Position numbers and translations under genes: made by a program. Below, one piece after another: positions 18,997 through 41,281 of a DNA stretch of 64,000 bases. This stretch comes from Vulcanimicrobiota bacterium (lineage in GTDB: Bacteria; Vulcanimicrobiota; Vulcanimicrobiia; Vulcanimicrobiales; Vulcanimicrobiaceae): positions 448,001 to 512,000 of the forward strand of contig CAWCIZ010000003.1 in NCBI GenBank assembly GCA_963795855.1, given 5' to 3'. Within the stretch, counting starts at the first letter, position 1, and each line of letters starts with the position of its first letter. The notes beneath the pieces were generated by a model. That model searched no databases and was not told the DNA's origin. It saw nothing but the letters and a program-made list of their open reading frames with translations.

Positions 18997-19943
18997 TTTC
19001 TGCGTTTGTCCTTTACGTAAACGGAACCGCCGATCGACTTGGCGTAACGCTTGAGTTCGGCGGCGGATTCGCCGATCTGCGCGTAATTTTCGAGTTTGCG
19101 CTGGTCGTTCGAGACGATTGCGACCGAAAGCGACATGATCGGATACCGGTTGAGCGTGCCGCGCCGGTCTCGAGTTTCGATGAACCCTTGACGCAAGTCT
19201 TGCACCTTGTACAGCTTTCGGATGTCCCGATCGAACGTGTCGATGATCTCGCGCGCGATCTCTTCCGCGCGTTCGGGCAGCGTCACGATGATGAAATCGT
19301 CGCCGCCGATGTGGCCGACGAAGTCTTGCGTGGTCCCGCGCCGGCGGACGGCGTCGACTCCGCTGGAGGCGACGAGTTGAATGGCTTCGTCGCCGTGCGT
19401 GAAGCCGTACACGTCATTGAACGCTTTGAAATTATCCAGATCGAGATAGAGGACCGCGAAAGGCTCCTGGTCGTCGATGCGGCGCCGCAACTCCGCTTCG
19501 ATCGCGAGATTGCCCGGCAAACGAGTGAGCGGCGAAAGCGAAGAGTCCACTTCGACGCGGCGGATCTTCGTCCTGACCCGCGCGAGCAGCTCTTGCGGAC
19601 CGAAGGGCTTGGTGATGTAGTCGTCCGCCCCCGCGTCGAAGCCGGCAAGTTTGTCTTCGACTTCGGATTTTGCCGTCAGCATGATGATAGGAACGTGCGT
19701 GTTCGACGGATGGCGGCGAACCCGGCGCGCCACTTCGTAGCCGTCCATCGACCGGCATCATGACGTCGAGCACGATGAGATCGGGCTGCATCGAATCCAA
19801 GAATCCGCAGCGCTTCGTCGCCGTTCGCCGCGGTCGTGACGTCGTAACCTGCGAGGCTCGAGATTGGTTTGGATGATCTTGCGCAGATTGCGATCGTCGT
19901 CTACGACCAGAATGCGTTTGCTGGCCTCGTCGAAGGGGTTCAC
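18993..19943 (-). CDS. Response regulator receiver-GGDEF diguanylate cyclase (frameshifts near 19750-19860)
   Basis: ILVVDDD...[16 protein letters not shown]...IIMLTAK...DDYITKPF, then [31 protein letters not shown] start overlaps the kinase stop. Confidence 0.88.
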
Positions 19944-20980
19944 CGGACGGGAAGCCTCAACGTGAACGTCGTGCCGCCGGCGACCTCGCTGCGCACGTCG
20001 ATCGTTCCGCCGTGCGCGCGCACGAGCGCGTGAACGATGTAGAGCCCGATGCCGCTTCCGCCGATTTTCGCCGCGCTTTGCGCTTCCGCGCGGTAAAAGC
20101 GATCGAAGATGTACGGAACGTCCGCCTCGGCGATTCCGATGCCGCGATCGCGAATGGTCACCGTGGTCTGCTCGCCGTTTGCAGACGCGGTGACGTCTAC
20201 GTCGCCGCCGCCCGGCGAATATTTGAACGCATTTTCGAGCAGGTTGCGAAAGATGTCTTGCAATCGCTCCGGATCTCCCGACACCGTAACGCCGTCGCAC
20301 CGGCGGCGGACCGGGTGCAGCACCGGATCGTGGTGCAGTTCGTGCAGCGCGCCGCCGATCAGCGCGTCGACCGAAACCGTCGTGCGACGCCGCAGCATCT
20401 GCCCCGAGTCGACGCGCGTGACGAGAAGCATGTCGTCGACGAGCCGCGAGAGCCGGTCGGCTTGCTGCTCCACAACGCCGAGAAATTCGTTGCGTTGCGA
20501 TTCGTACAGCCGCGGGTTGGCGCGAAGCGTTGCCGTGTAGGCTTTGATCGCGGCAAGCGGCGTTTTGAGTTCGTGCGAAACCGTGCTCACCAGCTCGTTT
20601 TTGAGTTGTTCGATCTCTTCGACGCGATGCTTTGGAGCAAACGCGAGAAGCCAGCCTTCGATGGCGGCGCCGCGCTTGAGCGCAACCGAACGGGCATGCA
20701 CGCTTACGGCTTCGCCGGCGGAGTCACGCAGCGCGAGGGCGTGCGTCTGCGGACCATCGGCGTTCGTGCAGATCGCGGATGCATTGCTTTCGTGCAGAAG
20801 CGACTCGACGTCGGAGCCGATTACACTTTCGGCGGAGTGGCCGAGCAGCGTTTCGGCCGCCGCAGTAAAACCGCACGATGTGACGGCGCTCATCGAGCTG
20901 GACGACGCCGTCGGCCGCAATCTGCATAACCGCGGCCAAGACCGCCTTGAGTGCGAGCAGTTCGTCGAGGAGATCGCGGT
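19940..20980 (-). CDS. Cytoplasmic PAS-domain sensor histidine kinase (frameshift near 20875; exact start uncertain)
   Basis: PAS-like AAETLLG; VSHELKTPL H-box; NLLENAFKYS; DRGIG; GSGIGL; no TM segment visible. Confidence 0.85.
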   Translation of the reverse strand, partial: TAISSTNCSHSRRSWPRLCRLRPTASSSSMSAVTSCGFTAAAETLLGHSAESVIGSDVESLLHESNASAICTNADGPQTHALALRDSAGEAVSVHARSVALKRGAAIEGWLLAFAPKHRVEEIEQLKNELVSTVSHELKTPLAAIKAYTATLRANPRLYESQRNEFLGVVEQQADRLSRLVDDMLLVTRVDSGQMLRRRTTVSVDALIGGALHELHHDPVLHPVRRRCDGVTVSGDPERLQDIFRNLLENAFKYSPGGGDVDVTASANGEQTTVTIRDRGIGIAEADVPYIFDRFYRAEAQSAAKIGGSGIGLYIVHALVRAHGGTIDVRSEVAGGTTFTLRLPVR

Positions 20981-21866
20981 TTACGTCCGCAGATAACGTC
21001 CGACTGCTATCCACGAAGCGACGACGCCCACTGCTGCTCCCACACCGAACAGCTGCAGAACGAGCGGCACCGCGTCCACATGTGCGCCGCTCGAGTTGCA
21101 GCCACGGCAGTGCGAGCGCCAGCTTCGGCACGAGCATGCCGCGCGCCACCGCGAGAACCCCGACCGCGAGCAATGCGCCGAGCACGCCGTCGATGAGGCC
21201 TTCGCAAATGAACGGCAAGCGGATGTACATGTTCGTGGCGCCGACGAGCTGCATGATCGAGATTTCGCGGCGGCGGGCGAACACCGTCAGACGGATCGTG
21301 TTGGAAATGATGATGCCGGCAACGACGATGAAGAGCGCAATCAGCGCGATGCCGACGCGGCGCGCGACACCCGCGAGCTGAAGCAGCCGCTGCACGACGT
21401 CTTGGCCGTAATCGACGCTTTGAACGTTCTGCAGTTTGCGGATCGCGGCAGCGACCGCGGGCACTTCTTCGGGTTGCCGCACGCGAACGCGGAACTTATC
21501 CGGCAGCGGATTTTCGGTGAGGATCGACGTGTCGATCTGCCCTTTCATCCGGTCGCGCAGTTCGTGCAGGCCTTCGTTCTTCGGAACGAATGCCGTGGAC
21601 AGGATGCGGTCGTCTTTCGCGAGCGCGGTGCGGACGCCGTCCATCTTGCGCGCGCGTTGCGTCGCGGCTGCATGTAGACCGAGATCGTGATTTGGCTCAT
21701 GACGTCGCTGGCCAAGTGCGCGATGCTCGTCCGCGCGTACAGAAAAACGCCCGAGCAGAACGATCGTCACGGCGACCGTGCCGATTGCCGTCGCCTGCAT
21801 TCCGGCGTTACGAGTGAAGTTGCGAAAAACTTCACCCAGAAAGAATTTGATCTTGCCCCAGTCCAA
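20981..21866 (-). CDS. ftsX: Cell division permease FtsX (several frameshifts)
   Basis: [20 protein letters not shown]...[10 protein letters not shown]...[38 protein letters not shown]; ends GRYLRT*. Confidence 0.9.
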
Positions 21867-22546
21867 GGAAGTAATACCCTCGCTCTTCGTCGGTGACGAT
21901 GCGGCCGTTCTCCAGACGAACGACGCGGCGGCGCATGCGATCGACGACCGCTTGATTGTGCGTGGCGACGACGACCGTCGTGCCTTTGAGGTTGATGCGG
22001 CCCAGCAATTCCATGATGTCGGTCGTGTTGGCCGGGTCGAGGTTGCCGGTCGGCTCGTCGCAGAGCAGCAATTTCGGATTGTTGACGAGCGCCCGCGCGA
22101 TTGCCGTGCGCTGCTGCTCGCCGCCGGAAAGTTCGTCCCGGATACATCCGGCTCTTGTGGCGAGAGCCCGACCAAATCCAGGCAACGCGGGACCTGCCGC
22201 ATCACGTCGCTTGCGTGTGCGCGCCCGTCACTTGCAGCGCGAATGCCACGTTTTCCCACACCGTTTTGTCGGTGAGAAGTTTGAAATCTTGGAATACCAC
22301 GCCCAGATGCCGGCGAAGCGTCGGAATGCGACTGCGCCGCAGCCGGTCTACGCGGATGCCGTCGACGGTGATTTCACCGCTGGACGGAACCATTTCGCGA
22401 TAGAGCAGCCGCAGGAGGCTGGATTTTCCGGTTCCGGAGTGCCCGACGAGGAAGACGAAGTCGCCTTTACCGATCTCGAGATCGATGCCGTCGAGGGCGC
22501 GCACTCCGTTCGGATACACGAGAGAGACGCCGCGTAATGAGATCAT
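21832..22546 (-). CDS. ftsE: Cell division ATP-binding protein FtsE (frameshifts near 22140-22210)
   Basis: [40 protein letters not shown]. Confidence 0.9.
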
Positions 22547-22595
22547 CGCTGCAAAAGGGTTTTTCAGAGCGCCCGTACGGATACCTCTGCCAATT

Positions 22596-23745
22596 ATGAA
22601 TTTTGACTTAACCGACGAACAGAAGGCCATCCGCGGGACCGTCCGAGAGTTCGCAGTGGAGCGCGTTGCACCGCGGGCCGAAGAAATGGACCGCGAGGAA
22701 GCGTTTCCATACGATCTCGTTACAGAGATGGCGGAACTCGGCCTGATGGGTCTGCCCTTTCCCGGAAGAATACGGCGGCGCCGGCGCCGACACGGTGAGT
22801 TACGCGCTCGCCGTGATGGAACTTGCGCGCGTCGACGCGTCCACCGCGATTACGATGGCCGCGCACGTTTCCTTGGGAGCAACCCCATTTTATCTTTTCG
22901 GCACGGAAGCGCAGAAACAGAAGTACCTCGTGCCGCTCGCTCAAGGAAAAATGCTCTGGGGCTTCGGCCTGACCGAGCCCAACGCGGGCAGCGACGCCGG
23001 CAACACGCAGACGAAGGCGCTGCTCAAAGACGGCAAGTGGGTCGTCAACGGCACGAAGGCGTTCATCACCAACAGCGGTACGGACATCACCGGCGGAACG
23101 ACGATCACCGCGGTGACGGGCAGCCGCGACGGCGGCAAAGCGGAGATCTCGAATCTGATCGTCGAGCAGAACACGCCCGGCTTTGCGCGCAGTAAGAAGT
23201 ACAGGAAGATGGGCTGGCGCGCTTCCGACACCCGCGAGCTTTCCTTTGTAGACGCGCAAGTGCCCGAAGAGAACGTGCTCGGCAAGCGCGGCGACGGCCT
23301 GAAAAATTTCCTCACTATCCTCGACGGCGGACGCATCTCCGTTGCGGCGCTCTCCGTGGGGCTTGCCCGTGGGGCGTACGACGAAGCGCTCAAATATGCG
23401 AAAGAACGATCGGCGTTCGGCCGCTCGATAAGCAAGTTCCAAGCGATTCAATTCAAACTCGTCGACATGCTCACCGAAATCGAGCACGCCGAGCTGATGG
23501 TGCTCAAGGCCGCCTGGGAGAAAGATGAAAAGCGCGAATTCGCGCAAACCGCGAGTTACGCCAAACTCTTCGCCGCCGAACTCTCGCATCGCGTCGTCAA
23601 CGAAGCGGTGCAAATTCACGGCGGCTACGGCTTCATGGACGAGTATCCGGTATCGCGCATGTACCGCGATCAGAAGATCAACGAGATCGGCGAGGGCACG
23701 AACGAAGTGCAACGCCTCGTGATTGCGCGGATGATGGGATTGTAG
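22596..23745 (+). CDS. Acyl-CoA dehydrogenase (frameshift near 22760)
   Basis: MNFDLTDEQ..., LTEPNAGSD, NGTKAFITN, RSAFG..ISKFQAIQFKL, QIHGGYG, IGEGTNEVQR. Confidence 0.92.
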
Positions 23746-24055
23746 ACTCGTTTACATTTTGTTTGCAGAGTTTGATTGTCCGCTGCGGCCCTCGCAGTTT
23801 GCACGAAAAACGTAAACGAGTGCTTGTAGTGGCGAACTGTAGCCGCCATTGGGACACATCGCCTTATAGGCGCGGGGTGCGTCCCGTTCGGCGAACTGCG
23901 ACATTTTCGGACAAAACAGGACGTTTTCTACAAAACTTCGTTCTTCTGAAAATGCGCAGTAGCGGTGAGTTTTCCATGGACGGAAAACTCACCAGCGGTC
24001 GCCGAACGGGACGCACCTCGTACCTATAAGCGCCATATCTTCCGTGTTCCGCTAC
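23742..24055 (+). repeat. Highly structured intergenic element (nested inverted repeats); candidate ncRNA or REP/REPIN-like non-autonomous element
   Basis: Stems 23746-23767/23800-23821, 23828-23834/23844-23850, 23851-23857/24044-24050, 32-bp 23863-23894/23999-24030, 23895-23911/23945-23960, perfect 12-bp 23964-23975/23982-23993. Confidence 0.75.
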
Positions 24056-24783
24056 GCTTGCACGACCGTCGCCCAGCCGGAGTATAAACCGCCGAACTCC
24101 TCCGCGAGCGTCGTAAGCGCGGTGCGCATTTCGGTGATTTTGAACGGGTCGATCGTGTCGTTCTTGCTGCATCGCACGGCGTTGACCGCATCGTCTATCG
24201 CAATGTCGTATCCGTGATCCGCCATGGCTCGAGCGAACGTATCGCGTTTTTCCGCGTCGTCGAACCGGATCGTGTGTTCGATCGGGCGCGCGCGTTCGAA
24301 GTCGTCGCCGGCGTCGAGCAGCGCTTGCAGCGCCTTCATGTCGTTTGCGAACGCCAGCTGATGTTCGTCGGGATAAAGATACGCGCTGTAGATGCTCCAC
24401 GCGGGATCCGAAGCGGAAAGCGCGCGGTAGCGGTATTCCGCGTGAAAGCCCATCACTTCCGCAACGATCTCCGAAGCGTCGTCCACCGGCGGGCCGTAAT
24501 AGTGAAAAGTGCGCATGCCGCGGCCGGTGACGCGCCCGACTTCGATGACGCCGCGCGGCCGGAACGCAGCAGCCAATTCTTCTTCGATATTTTGCAACGC
24601 GCGGTACTCGTTTTCGCCGGTCATGCCGTGTTCGTCCGGCTCGCGTAGCGCGACGGCGACAGTGTAGGCAGAGGGCTTCTCCGGCATCGGCGCTTGCGTT
24701 TTCAGCGCCAAATCCACCGCAATCGAGATCGGCGAGCCCTCCATGCGGGCGAAATAGGACGACCAGTCAGCCATGCGAGTCAT
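24052..24783 (-). CDS. DUF695 domain protein with C-terminal RraB-like domain
   Basis: VGRVTGRGMRTFHYY, DPAWSIYSAYLYP (DUF695-like); RPIEHTIRF...LAEEFGGLYSGW (RraB-like). Confidence 0.7.
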   Translation of the reverse strand: MTRMADWSSYFARMEGSPISIAVDLALKTQAPMPEKPSAYTVAVALREPDEHGMTGENEYRALQNIEEELAAAFRPRGVIEVGRVTGRGMRTFHYYGPPVDDASEIVAEVMGFHAEYRYRALSASDPAWSIYSAYLYPDEHQLAFANDMKALQALLDAGDDFERARPIEHTIRFDDAEKRDTFARAMADHGYDIAIDDAVNAVRCSKNDTIDPFKITEMRTALTTLAEEFGGLYSGWATVVQA

Positions 24784-38433: not shown

Positions 38434-39728
38434 GCGAAGCGGACGTACGCGAGCCGCCCGGACCGGGCATGTGGGAAACGTACCGCCGCTTGCGCAACAC
38501 GCCGCTGCGCGCGTTCCCAACGTTTCTGAGCGAACTGCAGCAAACGTACGGCGACGTAGCGGCGTTCCGCGTGCCGTGGCGCCGTTTCTACTTCGTCAAC
38601 GATCCGGCCGCCATAAAAGACATTCTCGTCACGCAGCAGCACGCGTTCGTCAAGTCCGAAGGCACGCGCGCGATGCGCGAGCTGCTCGGCGAGGGGCTGG
38701 TGACGAGCGAAGAACCGTTGCACCGGCGCATGCGGCGCATCGTGCAGCCGGCGTTTCATCGGGAACGCGTCGCGGGATACGCGGAAACCATGCGCGAGTA
38801 CGCGCGGCAATGGCGCGCGCCGCAAGGCGCGTTCGACATGCACGCGGAGATGATGGAGCTGACGCTGCGGATCGCCTCGCGCACGCTATTCGGCGTGGAC
38901 GCCGGCGCGCAGGCGGATCGCGTCGGCGCGGCGCTGCACGAAGTGGTCACGGTATTTCCGGACGTGTTGGGCCCGTTCGGCGCAATAAAACGCCGGCTGC
39001 CGGTGGCACCGACGCGCCGCTTTCGCAAAGCGCGGCGCATTCTGGACGCCATCGTGCTCGAGTTGATTGCGGTGCGGCGTAAAAGCGGAGAAGACCGCGG
39101 CGACGCGCTTTCCATGCTGCTCGCATCGCGAGACGAAGAAACGGGCGAAGGACTCAGCGACGCGCAGGTGCGCGACGAAGTCATGACGCTGTTCGTCGCC
39201 GGGCACGAGACGACCGCGAACGCGCTGACGTGGACGTGGTATCTGCTCGCGCGTAATCCGAACGTCCGCGAGCGTCTGGCGGGCGAGCTTTCAACGGATG
39301 CGCAAACGCCGTATCTCGACGCGGTTTTGAACGAGTCGCTGCGTTTATATCCGCCGGCGTGGATCCTCGGGCGCGATGCGCTGCGCGAAACGCATACGCA
39401 AGGCTGGCGAATCCGCAAGGGCGCTACGGTGCTCATGAGTCAGCTCGTCCTGCACCGGTCGCCGCTCTTTTTCGACGAGCCCGATCGGTTCATGCCGGAA
39501 CGCTGGCTGCGCGACCTGCGCCTGCCCGCCTTCGCGTACTTTCCGTTCGGAGGCGGCGCGCGCAAGTGCCTCGGCGATCAGTTCGCGTGGGCCGAGGCGC
39601 GGATAGAACTGGCGGATCTCGTGCAGCGCTATCGCTTCGAACTGGCGTCGTCCGCGGCGCTCGAACCCGATCCGATCATCACGCTGCGTCCTCGCGGCCC
39701 GGTCGTTATGCGCGCGCGCTTAGCTTAG
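38430..39728 (+). CDS. Cytochrome P450
   Basis: AGHETT, ESLR (ExxR), PERW, FGGGARKCLG heme ligand; ATG overlaps the yciH stop. Confidence 0.95.
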   Translation: MSEADVREPPGPGMWETYRRLRNTPLRAFPTFLSELQQTYGDVAAFRVPWRRFYFVNDPAAIKDILVTQQHAFVKSEGTRAMRELLGEGLVTSEEPLHRRMRRIVQPAFHRERVAGYAETMREYARQWRAPQGAFDMHAEMMELTLRIASRTLFGVDAGAQADRVGAALHEVVTVFPDVLGPFGAIKRRLPVAPTRRFRKARRILDAIVLELIAVRRKSGEDRGDALSMLLASRDEETGEGLSDAQVRDEVMTLFVAGHETTANALTWTWYLLARNPNVRERLAGELSTDAQTPYLDAVLNESLRLYPPAWILGRDALRETHTQGWRIRKGATVLMSQLVLHRSPLFFDEPDRFMPERWLRDLRLPAFAYFPFGGGARKCLGDQFAWAEARIELADLVQRYRFELASSAALEPDPIITLRPRGPVVMRARLA

Positions 39729-39907
39729 CCGCCGCCGGACGCCCTCTGCCGGAACCGCTCGAAAGATCGCCATCCAGGCGATCTTTCTGCTTCTCTGCTT
39801 TTTTGCGACGGCGAAGCCTTGAAGAAACCATCCATGGTTTGCGCAAAAAAGTCAGAGATTCCAGCAGAGGACGTCCGACGCCGTCTAAGCTAAGCCTGTA
39901 ACGGTTC

Positions 39908-41281
39908 TTAAGCCAGTACGAGCTGTTCGTCACCCGCGCCGGATTTGTGCAGCGCCTCGCGAATCATCTGCTCCTGAATCTCTCGCACGGCCCAGCGCGC
40001 CTGCGCGTCCGCCGAGAGTTTGTCGATCGGATCGAAGTAGAGAAACGCTTTTCCGGGTTTGACGCTGGGCGCGGCGTACACCGCGATGCCGTTGTCGCGG
40101 TCGTAGTACTCGTAGCTGTGCACGTCGCGCTTGCCGCCGCCGCCCGGCGCGTCGCAAACGAACGTCGGCGAGTTGAAACCGGCGGTGCTGCCGCGCACGA
40201 ACTTCTCGATGTCGGTTGCGGTTTTGATGGTGGTGCGCAGCTCTTCAACGCCCTTGACCATATCGTGCATGTAGACGTAGTACGGATGCACGTTCACATG
40301 GCCCAAACGTTTGACGAGCAGACTGCATGCGTTCCGGCGTATCGTTCACGCCGCGGATGAGTACCGACTGATTGCGGACGAAGATGCCGCGTTCGAAGAG
40401 CATGCGCATCGCGATTTCCGTGATCCAAGTAATCTCTTCGGGCGCGTTGTAGTGCGTATGCAGGACGACGTCTTTGCCGAGCGTGCGCCCGCGATCGACG
40501 ATTGAGGTCAGCGCGTCCAGCCACTCCTTGTGCGTGATGATTTTCATCGGCATGATCGCCGGGCCTTTGGTGGCAAAGCGCATGCGCCGCACGTGCGGGA
40601 TGTCGAGCAGCGCGTTTCCGATGAGTTCGATGTTCTTCGGCGGCAGCTGATACGTGTCTCCGCCGGAGATCACGATGTCTTCGAGCTCGGGACGCTCCGA
40701 AATGTATTTGAACGCGTCCTGCCACTGCTTGGGCGTCTTCGCCAGTTCTTTCTTGTCGACGTTTTCCGTGTCCGGACCGATCGCGTACTGCGCGTGCAGA
40801 ACCGGCAATACACCGGGCAAGTGTTCAGCGGAAGAAACAGCGCCTTGTCGACGTAGCGGTGAACGAGACCGGGAACGGGCGAGTCGTCCTGTTCGTGCAG
40901 CGAATCCAGCGTCAAGCGCGGATGATCCGGCAGCAGCGTGCTGGCGACCGGAATGAATTGCCGGCGAATCGGATCGTTGTACGGATCGTTCCAGTCGATG
41001 AGCGACATTGCGTACGGCGAAACCCGCACCGCCATCGGCGCGCGGCGGAAGCCGGTTTCCGCGTCTTTGATGAACTCGGAGGACGCGAGGCTCTTGATGG
41101 TCTCGAGCAGTTCTTCCGGCGTCTTGACTGCATGCTTCTGCTGCCACAAATGATCGAGAAACGTGGCTTCGTCCACGTCCTTGTATGCGGGAACATGGCG
41201 CCAGAACTCGCCTTGTTTGAGATTTTTGTACTGCAGCGTTTCCAGCTGCACCGGCGGCTTTTTGTGCTCGATCTCGTTCAT
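39908..41281 (-). CDS. kamA: KamA family radical SAM lysine 2,3-aminomutase (frameshifts near 40790 and 40320)
   Basis: DPIRRQFIP, VPGLVHRY, CPVYCRFC, ISGGD, NQSVLIRGVND, PYYVY, DAPGGGGK. Confidence 0.85.

Follow-up and report, generated by a model that had tools for sequence, protein, structure and literature searches.

A dispersed, covarying repeat with two CsrA-type GGA loops in the Vulcanimicrobiaceae, a probable lineage variant of TwoAYGGAY-like elements

Introduction

The TwoAYGGAY motif, catalogued since 2010 (PMC2864571), comprises two AYGGAY hairpins on a basal stem, with lineage-specific extensions and pronounced swings in copy number (bioRxiv 10.64898/2026.09.22.753630). Its outer stem is poorly conserved, and in the account given in PMC4333381 CsrA binding is proposed, not shown. 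For Pseudomonas, 68.4% divergent doublets are reported in a preprint that does not settle how mobility and regulation are connected (bioRxiv 10.64898/2026.09.22.753630). Eremiobacterota go unmentioned in its main text; its supplements and those of PMC2864571 may hold closer variants. The sponge RNAs CsrB, CsrC, RsmY and RsmZ, which also present GGA in hairpin loops matching the core of the CsrA SELEX consensus (PMC7652899), are a second point of reference. Our literature searches returned nothing on CsrA in Vulcanimicrob- taxa, nothing joining R200, REPIN and SBW25, and, on repeat noncoding RNA of Eremiobacterota, only a soil co-assembly study.

Here we consider an intergenic locus in a window of 64,000 nucleotides from a Vulcanimicrobiota bacterium (assembly GCA_963795855.1, contig CAWCIZ010000003.1, positions 448,001 to 512,000). 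A preliminary description had proposed a multi-stem element of about 310 nt, either an undescribed structured RNA or a composite REPIN-like unit.

Results

The locus occupies the gap between two convergent genes, and the features of the window to which we refer are as follows.

22795..23745, + strand: left flank, acyl-CoA dehydrogenase (Pfam PF00441, PF02770)
23746-24051: intergenic gap between the convergent acyl-CoA dehydrogenase and DUF695/RraB genes
24052..24774, - strand: right flank, convergent gene for a DUF695 + RraB domain protein (Pfam PF05117, PF06877)
23746..23821, either strand: imperfect long hairpin, unique to the locus and outside the family (z -3.2, same energy on both strands)
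23828..23850, + strand: small upstream hairpin (z -2.4)
23863..24030, + strand: repeat unit, a locus-specific outer stem around a conserved branched core (by model R1 and fold z)
23863..23894, + strand: P1 5' arm, locus-specific (against 23999-24030: 29 Watson-Crick pairs, 2 G-U, 1 mismatch)
23999..24030, + strand: P1 3' arm, partner of 23863-23894
23895..23960, + strand: P2 arm, long stem 23895-23912/23945-23960 with a three-way junction on top
23913..23927, + strand: P2a hairpin, loop AGGAC, GGA at 23919-23921, first CsrA-type site
23932..23944, + strand: P2b, small hairpin with a C-TTC-G tip, missing from the variant of genome G132
23964..23993, + strand: P3, perfect 12-bp hairpin, loop ATGGAC, GGA at 23978-23980, second CsrA-type site
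39718..39895, - strand: second copy in the window (R1 match 39739-39879, 138 bits, outside the training set)

The gap is AT-richer than its flanks, as had been noticed: its GC content is 52%, that of the flanking genes 60% and 62%. It is also strongly self-complementary. On the + strand the 314 nt reach a folding energy of -155.3 kcal/mol (z -11.2) and on the - strand one of -149.5 (z -9.0), and none of 100 shuffles did as well. The 32-bp arm, with its single mismatch and two G-U pairs, and the perfect 12-bp hairpin are both present as first drawn. The extent of about 310 nt was drawn too wide, however, since the unit 23863-24030 holds almost all of the fold signal and reaches z -14.8 on its own. 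A basal stem proposed at 23851-57/24044-50 does form 7 bp, one of them G-U, but it lies outside the family and is unmatched by the model, and the two upstream hairpins, which are likewise real in the sequence, have z-scores of -3.2 and -2.4, no model match and no place in the family. The interval 23742-23862 gave no match below E 0.2 in the host's own genome or in the relatives' loci that we collected. The 9-mer at 23831-23839 is identical to 23890-23898 and occurs 92 times genome-wide; the hairpin 23828-23850 is possibly the collapsed relic of an earlier unit, on this slight resemblance. We also considered the upstream hairpin as a decayed partner unit and set that idea aside, as the model gives no match there. 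The 5' part of the acyl-CoA dehydrogenase gene is apparently frameshifted in the present assembly and full-length in relatives. In the window at 19758-23195 and 39908-41281, several conserved genes (ftsE/ftsX-like, dehydrogenase, aminomutase-like) seem to be split by frameshifts that are likely assembly errors.

The element belongs to a lineage-specific repeat family dispersed between genes. BLASTN recovered diverged copies of the core in the host's own genome and in 7 of 40 relatives, and a covariance model built from 27 copies (R1) gave 14 matches in the own genome at 13 places, 11 of them with E below 1e-15, so that the proposed multi-copy character is borne out. R1 scores 150 bits at 23874-24014, where the copy belongs to the training set. 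The second copy in the window lies between cytochrome P450-like and lysine aminomutase-like genes (named from sequence), at a site that is without the element in the relatives viewed. With the best 23-26 candidates per genome scored, R1 matched in at least 62 of 85 genomes of the host family, in none of 35 from two other families of the class and in none of 79 from 20 other families of the phylum; G061, a genome of another family with csrA and no match, is counted within the class-level and csrA tallies. Copy number varies from 1 to at least 26 matches per genome. An exact-pattern scan of 185,579 species genomes returned 41 stretches, 40 of them titled Eremiobacterota or Vulcanimicrobiota (Baltobacteraceae, Cybelea and others) and one Acidiferrales, and viral contigs gave 0 matches to one exact pattern.

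In the family fold, P1 is followed by P2 (15 bp), whose tip branches at a junction into P2a (5 bp, GGA loop) and P2b (5 bp, loop of 2-3 nt), and then by P3 (11-12 bp, GGA loop). All five helices covary. In a plain MAFFT alignment of the 27 sequences 94.6% of the cells are paired and two-sided changes occur in 42 of the 53 pairs, a level reached by none of 500 shuffles and compared with 41-50% in slid controls; a model-fitted alignment of 58 copies, which leans towards the model, gives 95.6% paired and 45/53. P2 is paired in 97.5% of cells with two-sided changes in 10 of its 15 pairs, P2a in 100% with covariation in 4 of 5 (27 sequences), and P3 covaries in 10 of 13 pairs, its GGA having an unpaired probability of 1.0 in the copy at 23863-24030. 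The long imperfect hairpin previously drawn at 23895-23960 is the minimum-energy fold of the single sequence, and the covariation of the family replaces it with a second three-way junction bearing P2a and P2b. The minimum-energy fold of the copy at 23863-24030 has its first GGA paired, and the family fold with an open P2a loop lies 3.8 kcal/mol above that minimum. Across the family the first GGA is open in the minimum fold of 76 of 129 copies, and in 112 within 2 kcal/mol.

The outer stems are biased towards one strand. Counted over 135 distinct copies, which are not independent of one another, they contain 186 G-U against 63 A-C oppositions, and this excess indicates that one strand is selected, in agreement with the earlier suspicion of selection on a folded + strand. 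G-T pairs are tolerated in folded DNA too, so the strand bias is no proof of RNA.

The outer stem is also the part of the unit that differs from locus to locus, ranging from 19 to 68 bp (median 32, 90 copies) and unique to each. Within genomes the cores are 64-89% identical (medians) and the arms 32-45%; in G024 the core identity is 89% and the arm identity 34%. On the 3' side, overlap of the arm with the end of a convergent gene, by its last 5 bases or more, is seen for 12 of 45 distinct nearby genes; for the arm on the 5' side the count is 2 of 29 (p = 0.038). At two loci (L174, L180) the codons under the arm belong to the gene itself, whose end is unchanged at the host's empty site, and at nuoK conserved gene ends recur under the overlap. 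In the copy at 39718-39895 the 3' arm covers 11 nt at the end of the convergent gene that stops at 39728, and orthologues of that gene end differently. These overlaps hint that one arm could be an inverted copy of the target, which we treat as a lead only, and a later perfecting of the palindrome would look similar. The arms were also considered as captured spacers, an idea we rejected: among the matches listed, the own genome gave only self-matches and matches of 12-24 nt at chance level.

In contrast to the variable stems, the two loops are nearly constant, and both fit C-N(0-3)GGAN-G in 115 of 135 copies. The first is mostly the 5-nt word AGGAT; ATGGAG, AGGAT, ATGGAC and ATGGAT dominate in the second. 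They fit the core of the CsrA SELEX consensus RUACARGGAUGU, and the two GGA of the element stand 59 nt apart, CsrA having a bridging range of 10-63 nt (PMC7652899). The host genome contains the gene row flgL-fliW-csrA-flagellin (names other than csrA judged from sequence), and its flagellin leader has a hairpin with a C-AGGAC-G loop together with ATGGAG across the Shine-Dalgarno sequence. At four relatives' csrA loci flagellin is the next gene in three, and all three of these leaders have the same two sites. This layout mirrors that of Bacillus subtilis hag, where CsrA binds two sites in the leader (PMC7652899). Because the loop words match the predicted CsrA sites of the host's own flagellin message, the element likely binds CsrA.

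The distribution of csrA itself is less discriminating. The gene, with Arg44 kept, is present in the host genome and in 80 of the 85 family genomes; the element occurs in 60 of the 80 genomes with csrA and in 2 of the 5 without, which is not significant (p = 0.12), and 23 csrA-bearing genomes of two other families gave no element match among the best 23-26 candidates per genome. In G132, which is 94% complete, csrA was found neither next to fliW nor anywhere else, and the genome still has 5 copies, which lack P2b and keep GGA loops in at least four. At its flagellar locus (L103:2527-3958) fliW and flagellin are immediate neighbours, without the csrA that usually separates them, and to our knowledge FliW acts only through CsrA. 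A further genome, G007 (81% complete), has copies and no csrA match. In the host genome, a divergent pair of a distinct subtype (G000:C1:391497-392119, L044) lies just upstream of flgF/flgG-like flagellar genes and about 10 kb from csrA; a same-genus genome also has a copy at this site.

Occupancy of individual sites is patchy. The DUF695 gene is found in 6 of 7 same-genus genomes, and the model finds no copy at any of the six loci. The gene meets the dehydrogenase across 13 bp in G005 and across 4 bp in G007, which provides the empty sites that had been sought, and the remaining four loci hold other inserts or other neighbours. In one soil contig 20 letters separate the two genes, and a metagenome scan for closer alleles of this site yielded 3 loci, none with the element as judged by eye. 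Other palindromic repeats of relatives lie at DUF695 or dehydrogenase gene ends (L100, L102, L206, L207), so the gap is a repeat hot spot. Among 34 relatives' copies, 29 have syntenic flanks in the host genome, at 22 sites, of which 16 are without the element, 3 intact and 3 relics; the 'empty' sites may be losses rather than gains. Some sites recur across genera (nuoD-E, nuoK-L, lpdA-lipB, purA and dnaK, named from sequence), and such sharing makes long retention with homogenisation of the core, or loss, possible. A second, unrelated repeat family in the host genome, a palindrome-rich unit of about 130 nt in two or three copies (G000:C2:354209-354362 and 357390-357660), occupies sites where relatives have the GGA element. 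At L016, L022 (the purA site) and L134 a complete unit lies beside or inside the remnant of another, which suggests insertion into old copies, both purA loci being in fragmented assemblies.

Where two units lie close together they are paired back to back. Of the 21 pairs whose units lie within 1.2 kb of each other, duplicates counted once, 20 are divergent and one is tandem, and four pairs bracket an open reading frame, encoding a glyoxalase-fold protein, a phosphoesterase, a D-Tyr-tRNA deacylase and an AT-rich product without a Pfam match. The last of these, of 171 aa (L093:809-1324 in G132), lies upstream of dnaK between two divergent units; the pair that G015 has there encloses no called reading frame. 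G024 and G137 have copies in opposite orientation at 4 of 7 shared sites. We rejected these differences as evidence of active inversion, several of the joins there being chimeric or fold-back, and the fixed divergent doublets argue against random flipping; active inversion may nevertheless occur, since copies at other shared sites differ in orientation too.

Neighbouring genes, called with our own hexamer gene caller, could be assigned on both sides of 124 copies, of which 45 lie in convergent gaps, 41 antisense and 37 sense to their neighbours, and 1 in a divergent gap. Genome-wide, the corresponding numbers among 1582 gaps are 192, 567, 551 and 272.

The possibility that this is an undescribed structured RNA stands in part. 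Rfam gives no match at the gathering level in the window, with chance-level matches below the gathering score only, and RF01731 (gathering cut-off 43 bits) has none in the window, none in 8 loci with other copies and 0 matches at E <= 10 among 124 candidates scored in the genome; the element is thus not filed as a TwoAYGGAY member. The architecture, however, is that of the TwoAYGGAY class, the two CsrA-type loops having been overlooked at first. Both have two GGA-loop hairpins closed by C-G on a long, poorly conserved basal stem, and both are dispersed with very variable copy number and an excess of divergent doublets. Unlike in TwoAYGGAY, the arm that bears the first loop is 15 bp long in the present element and includes an additional three-way junction and a third hairpin, and the simple hairpin takes the second place instead of the first when the element is compared by eye with 12 seed rows (PMC2864571); the G132 variant, without the third hairpin, is closer to the two-hairpin layout. 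The extended TwoAYGGAY form of Pseudomonadota has repeats of the 5' GMTBT type, together with a pseudoknot on the 3' side and REP arrays farther downstream; such 5' repeats are not among the 15 most enriched 6-mers upstream of 130 copies. The likeness to CsrB, CsrC, RsmY and RsmZ lies in the GGA loops, for which CsrA binding is predicted by motif. The element differs from these RNAs in having two sites per unit, many genomic copies and no promoter or terminator that we could find, and its host differs from their systems in having a FliW-type CsrA circuit.

Discussion

We think it somewhat more probable than otherwise that the family is a mobile folded repeat whose GGA strand, when transcribed, would bind CsrA. 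In outline, a non-autonomous element likely spreads into gaps at gene ends, and its GGA strand, once transcribed, likely binds a CsrA dimer through the two GGA loops and would serve as a decoy or docking site. Our working guess for the movement is a folded single-stranded intermediate in which every insertion makes its own outer stem, at times perhaps by inverted copying of the neighbouring gene end. Several observations weigh against the CsrA-binding, mobile reading: the loops are retained just as often in copies antisense to both neighbours, G132 keeps them without csrA, the association with csrA is not significant, csrA-bearing genomes of two other families gave no match, the first GGA of the copy at 23863-24030 is paired at the energy minimum, neither a Y1 transposase nor a reverse transcriptase turned up in the five genomes searched for each, and certain sites are common to several genera.

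An alternative that we consider possible, if unlikely, is that the fold acts as single-stranded DNA in transposition, with the GGA loops read by some other mobility protein and the likeness to CsrA sites secondary. The tolerance of G-T pairs in folded DNA and the retention of the loops in G132 without csrA are consistent with this, as is the even orientation to host operons (37 sense, 41 antisense) combined with equal conservation of both loops in sense (32/37), antisense (36/41) and convergent (38/45) copies. No enrichment of sigma-70 or sigma-28 consensus words was seen upstream of the copies, and equal conservation in antisense copies without a promoter signal means that operon read-through cannot explain why the loops are kept. 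Against the single-stranded DNA reading, the loops equal the host's flagellin-leader sites letter for letter, and the expected machinery did not appear: the Y1 transposase domain (PF01797) was found in none of five copy-bearing genomes that are 86-96% complete, with the control positive in 6 of 14, and RVT_1 reverse transcriptase in none of five. Clustering of the proteins flanking 135 copies, judged from sequence starts, brought out no recurring mobile gene, and the 14 own-genome copies have no evident bias against local GC skew by eye.

ERIC, Correia and REP repeats act as signals for mRNA processing or stability, and a duplex of 20-60 bp after a stop codon on either strand might here be an RNase III site or a block to 3' exonucleases, with the loops as passengers. 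The placement of the copies speaks for this: divergent gaps are avoided (1/124, against 272/1582 genome-wide), convergent gaps are favoured (45/124 against 192/1582), 55 of 90 copies lie within 15 nt of a convergent stop, and the nuo, lpdA-lipB and purA operon sites recur across genera. We nevertheless regard it as distinctly improbable, since it leaves unexplained the invariant GGA loops on covarying stems, the G-U bias of one strand and the divergent pairing.

The proposal that a RAYT (TnpA-REP) nuclease processes the element as a composite REP/REPIN unit, which we now hold to be very improbable, arose from GTAG tags before three hairpins. The tags are indeed there, GTAG at 23742, 23826 and 23959, with one more at 23839, and CTAC at 24052, with one more at 23928, and both flanking stop codons do fall within them. 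Like GTAG-family REP/REPIN sequences with RAYTs, the element is extragenic, lies near stop codons and forms inverted doublets, sometimes with genes between the units. The two outer tags are, however, stop-codon context, the acyl-CoA dehydrogenase gene ending in GTAG at empty sites too, and across 135 copies a 5'-terminal GTAG and a 3'-terminal CTAC occur in 8 each and a linker GTAG in 34. GTAG is thus not a feature of the family, whose branched unit of 140-200 nt has neither a conserved tag nor a conserved palindrome in its arms, and no PF01797 match turned up in the five copy-bearing genomes searched. A chance or decayed bidirectional intrinsic terminator, suggested by the position between convergent genes, is scarcely conceivable for a multi-copy, covarying family in which terminator scans are at chance level and, of 135 copies, 1 has a U-rich tail behind its stem on the GGA strand and 9 have one on the opposite strand, and the early view that the element exceeds what a terminator requires is upheld.

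Returning to the reading as a mobile, CsrA-binding repeat, our verdict is that the element is probably a new lineage variant of TwoAYGGAY-like elements, for which both CsrA binding and mobility are predicted from the features set out above. Since the class is already known, the surprise is moderate. A bolder version, which we put forward as speculation and think rather doubtful, is a self-propagating CsrA decoy whose movement would need neither a Y1 transposase nor a chromosomal reverse transcriptase, and which would build a fresh stem of 20-65 bp by inverted copying of the 3' end of a gene on the opposite strand. If so, back-to-back pairs would bracket and carry passenger genes, an RNA antagonist would be added to a FliW-type CsrA circuit, and a mobility chemistry so far undescribed would be common to TwoAYGGAY-like repeats. 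According to PMC7652899, the joint modulation of CsrA by FliW and RNAs is open for any species. In the accounts of TwoAYGGAY-like elements cited above, neither CsrA binding nor mobility has been shown since 2010. The present family offers a clean test case for both: a single host CsrA, with an evident target whose sites recur in the loops, near-identical cores with unrelated arms in some genomes, empty sites, and a natural variant without csrA.
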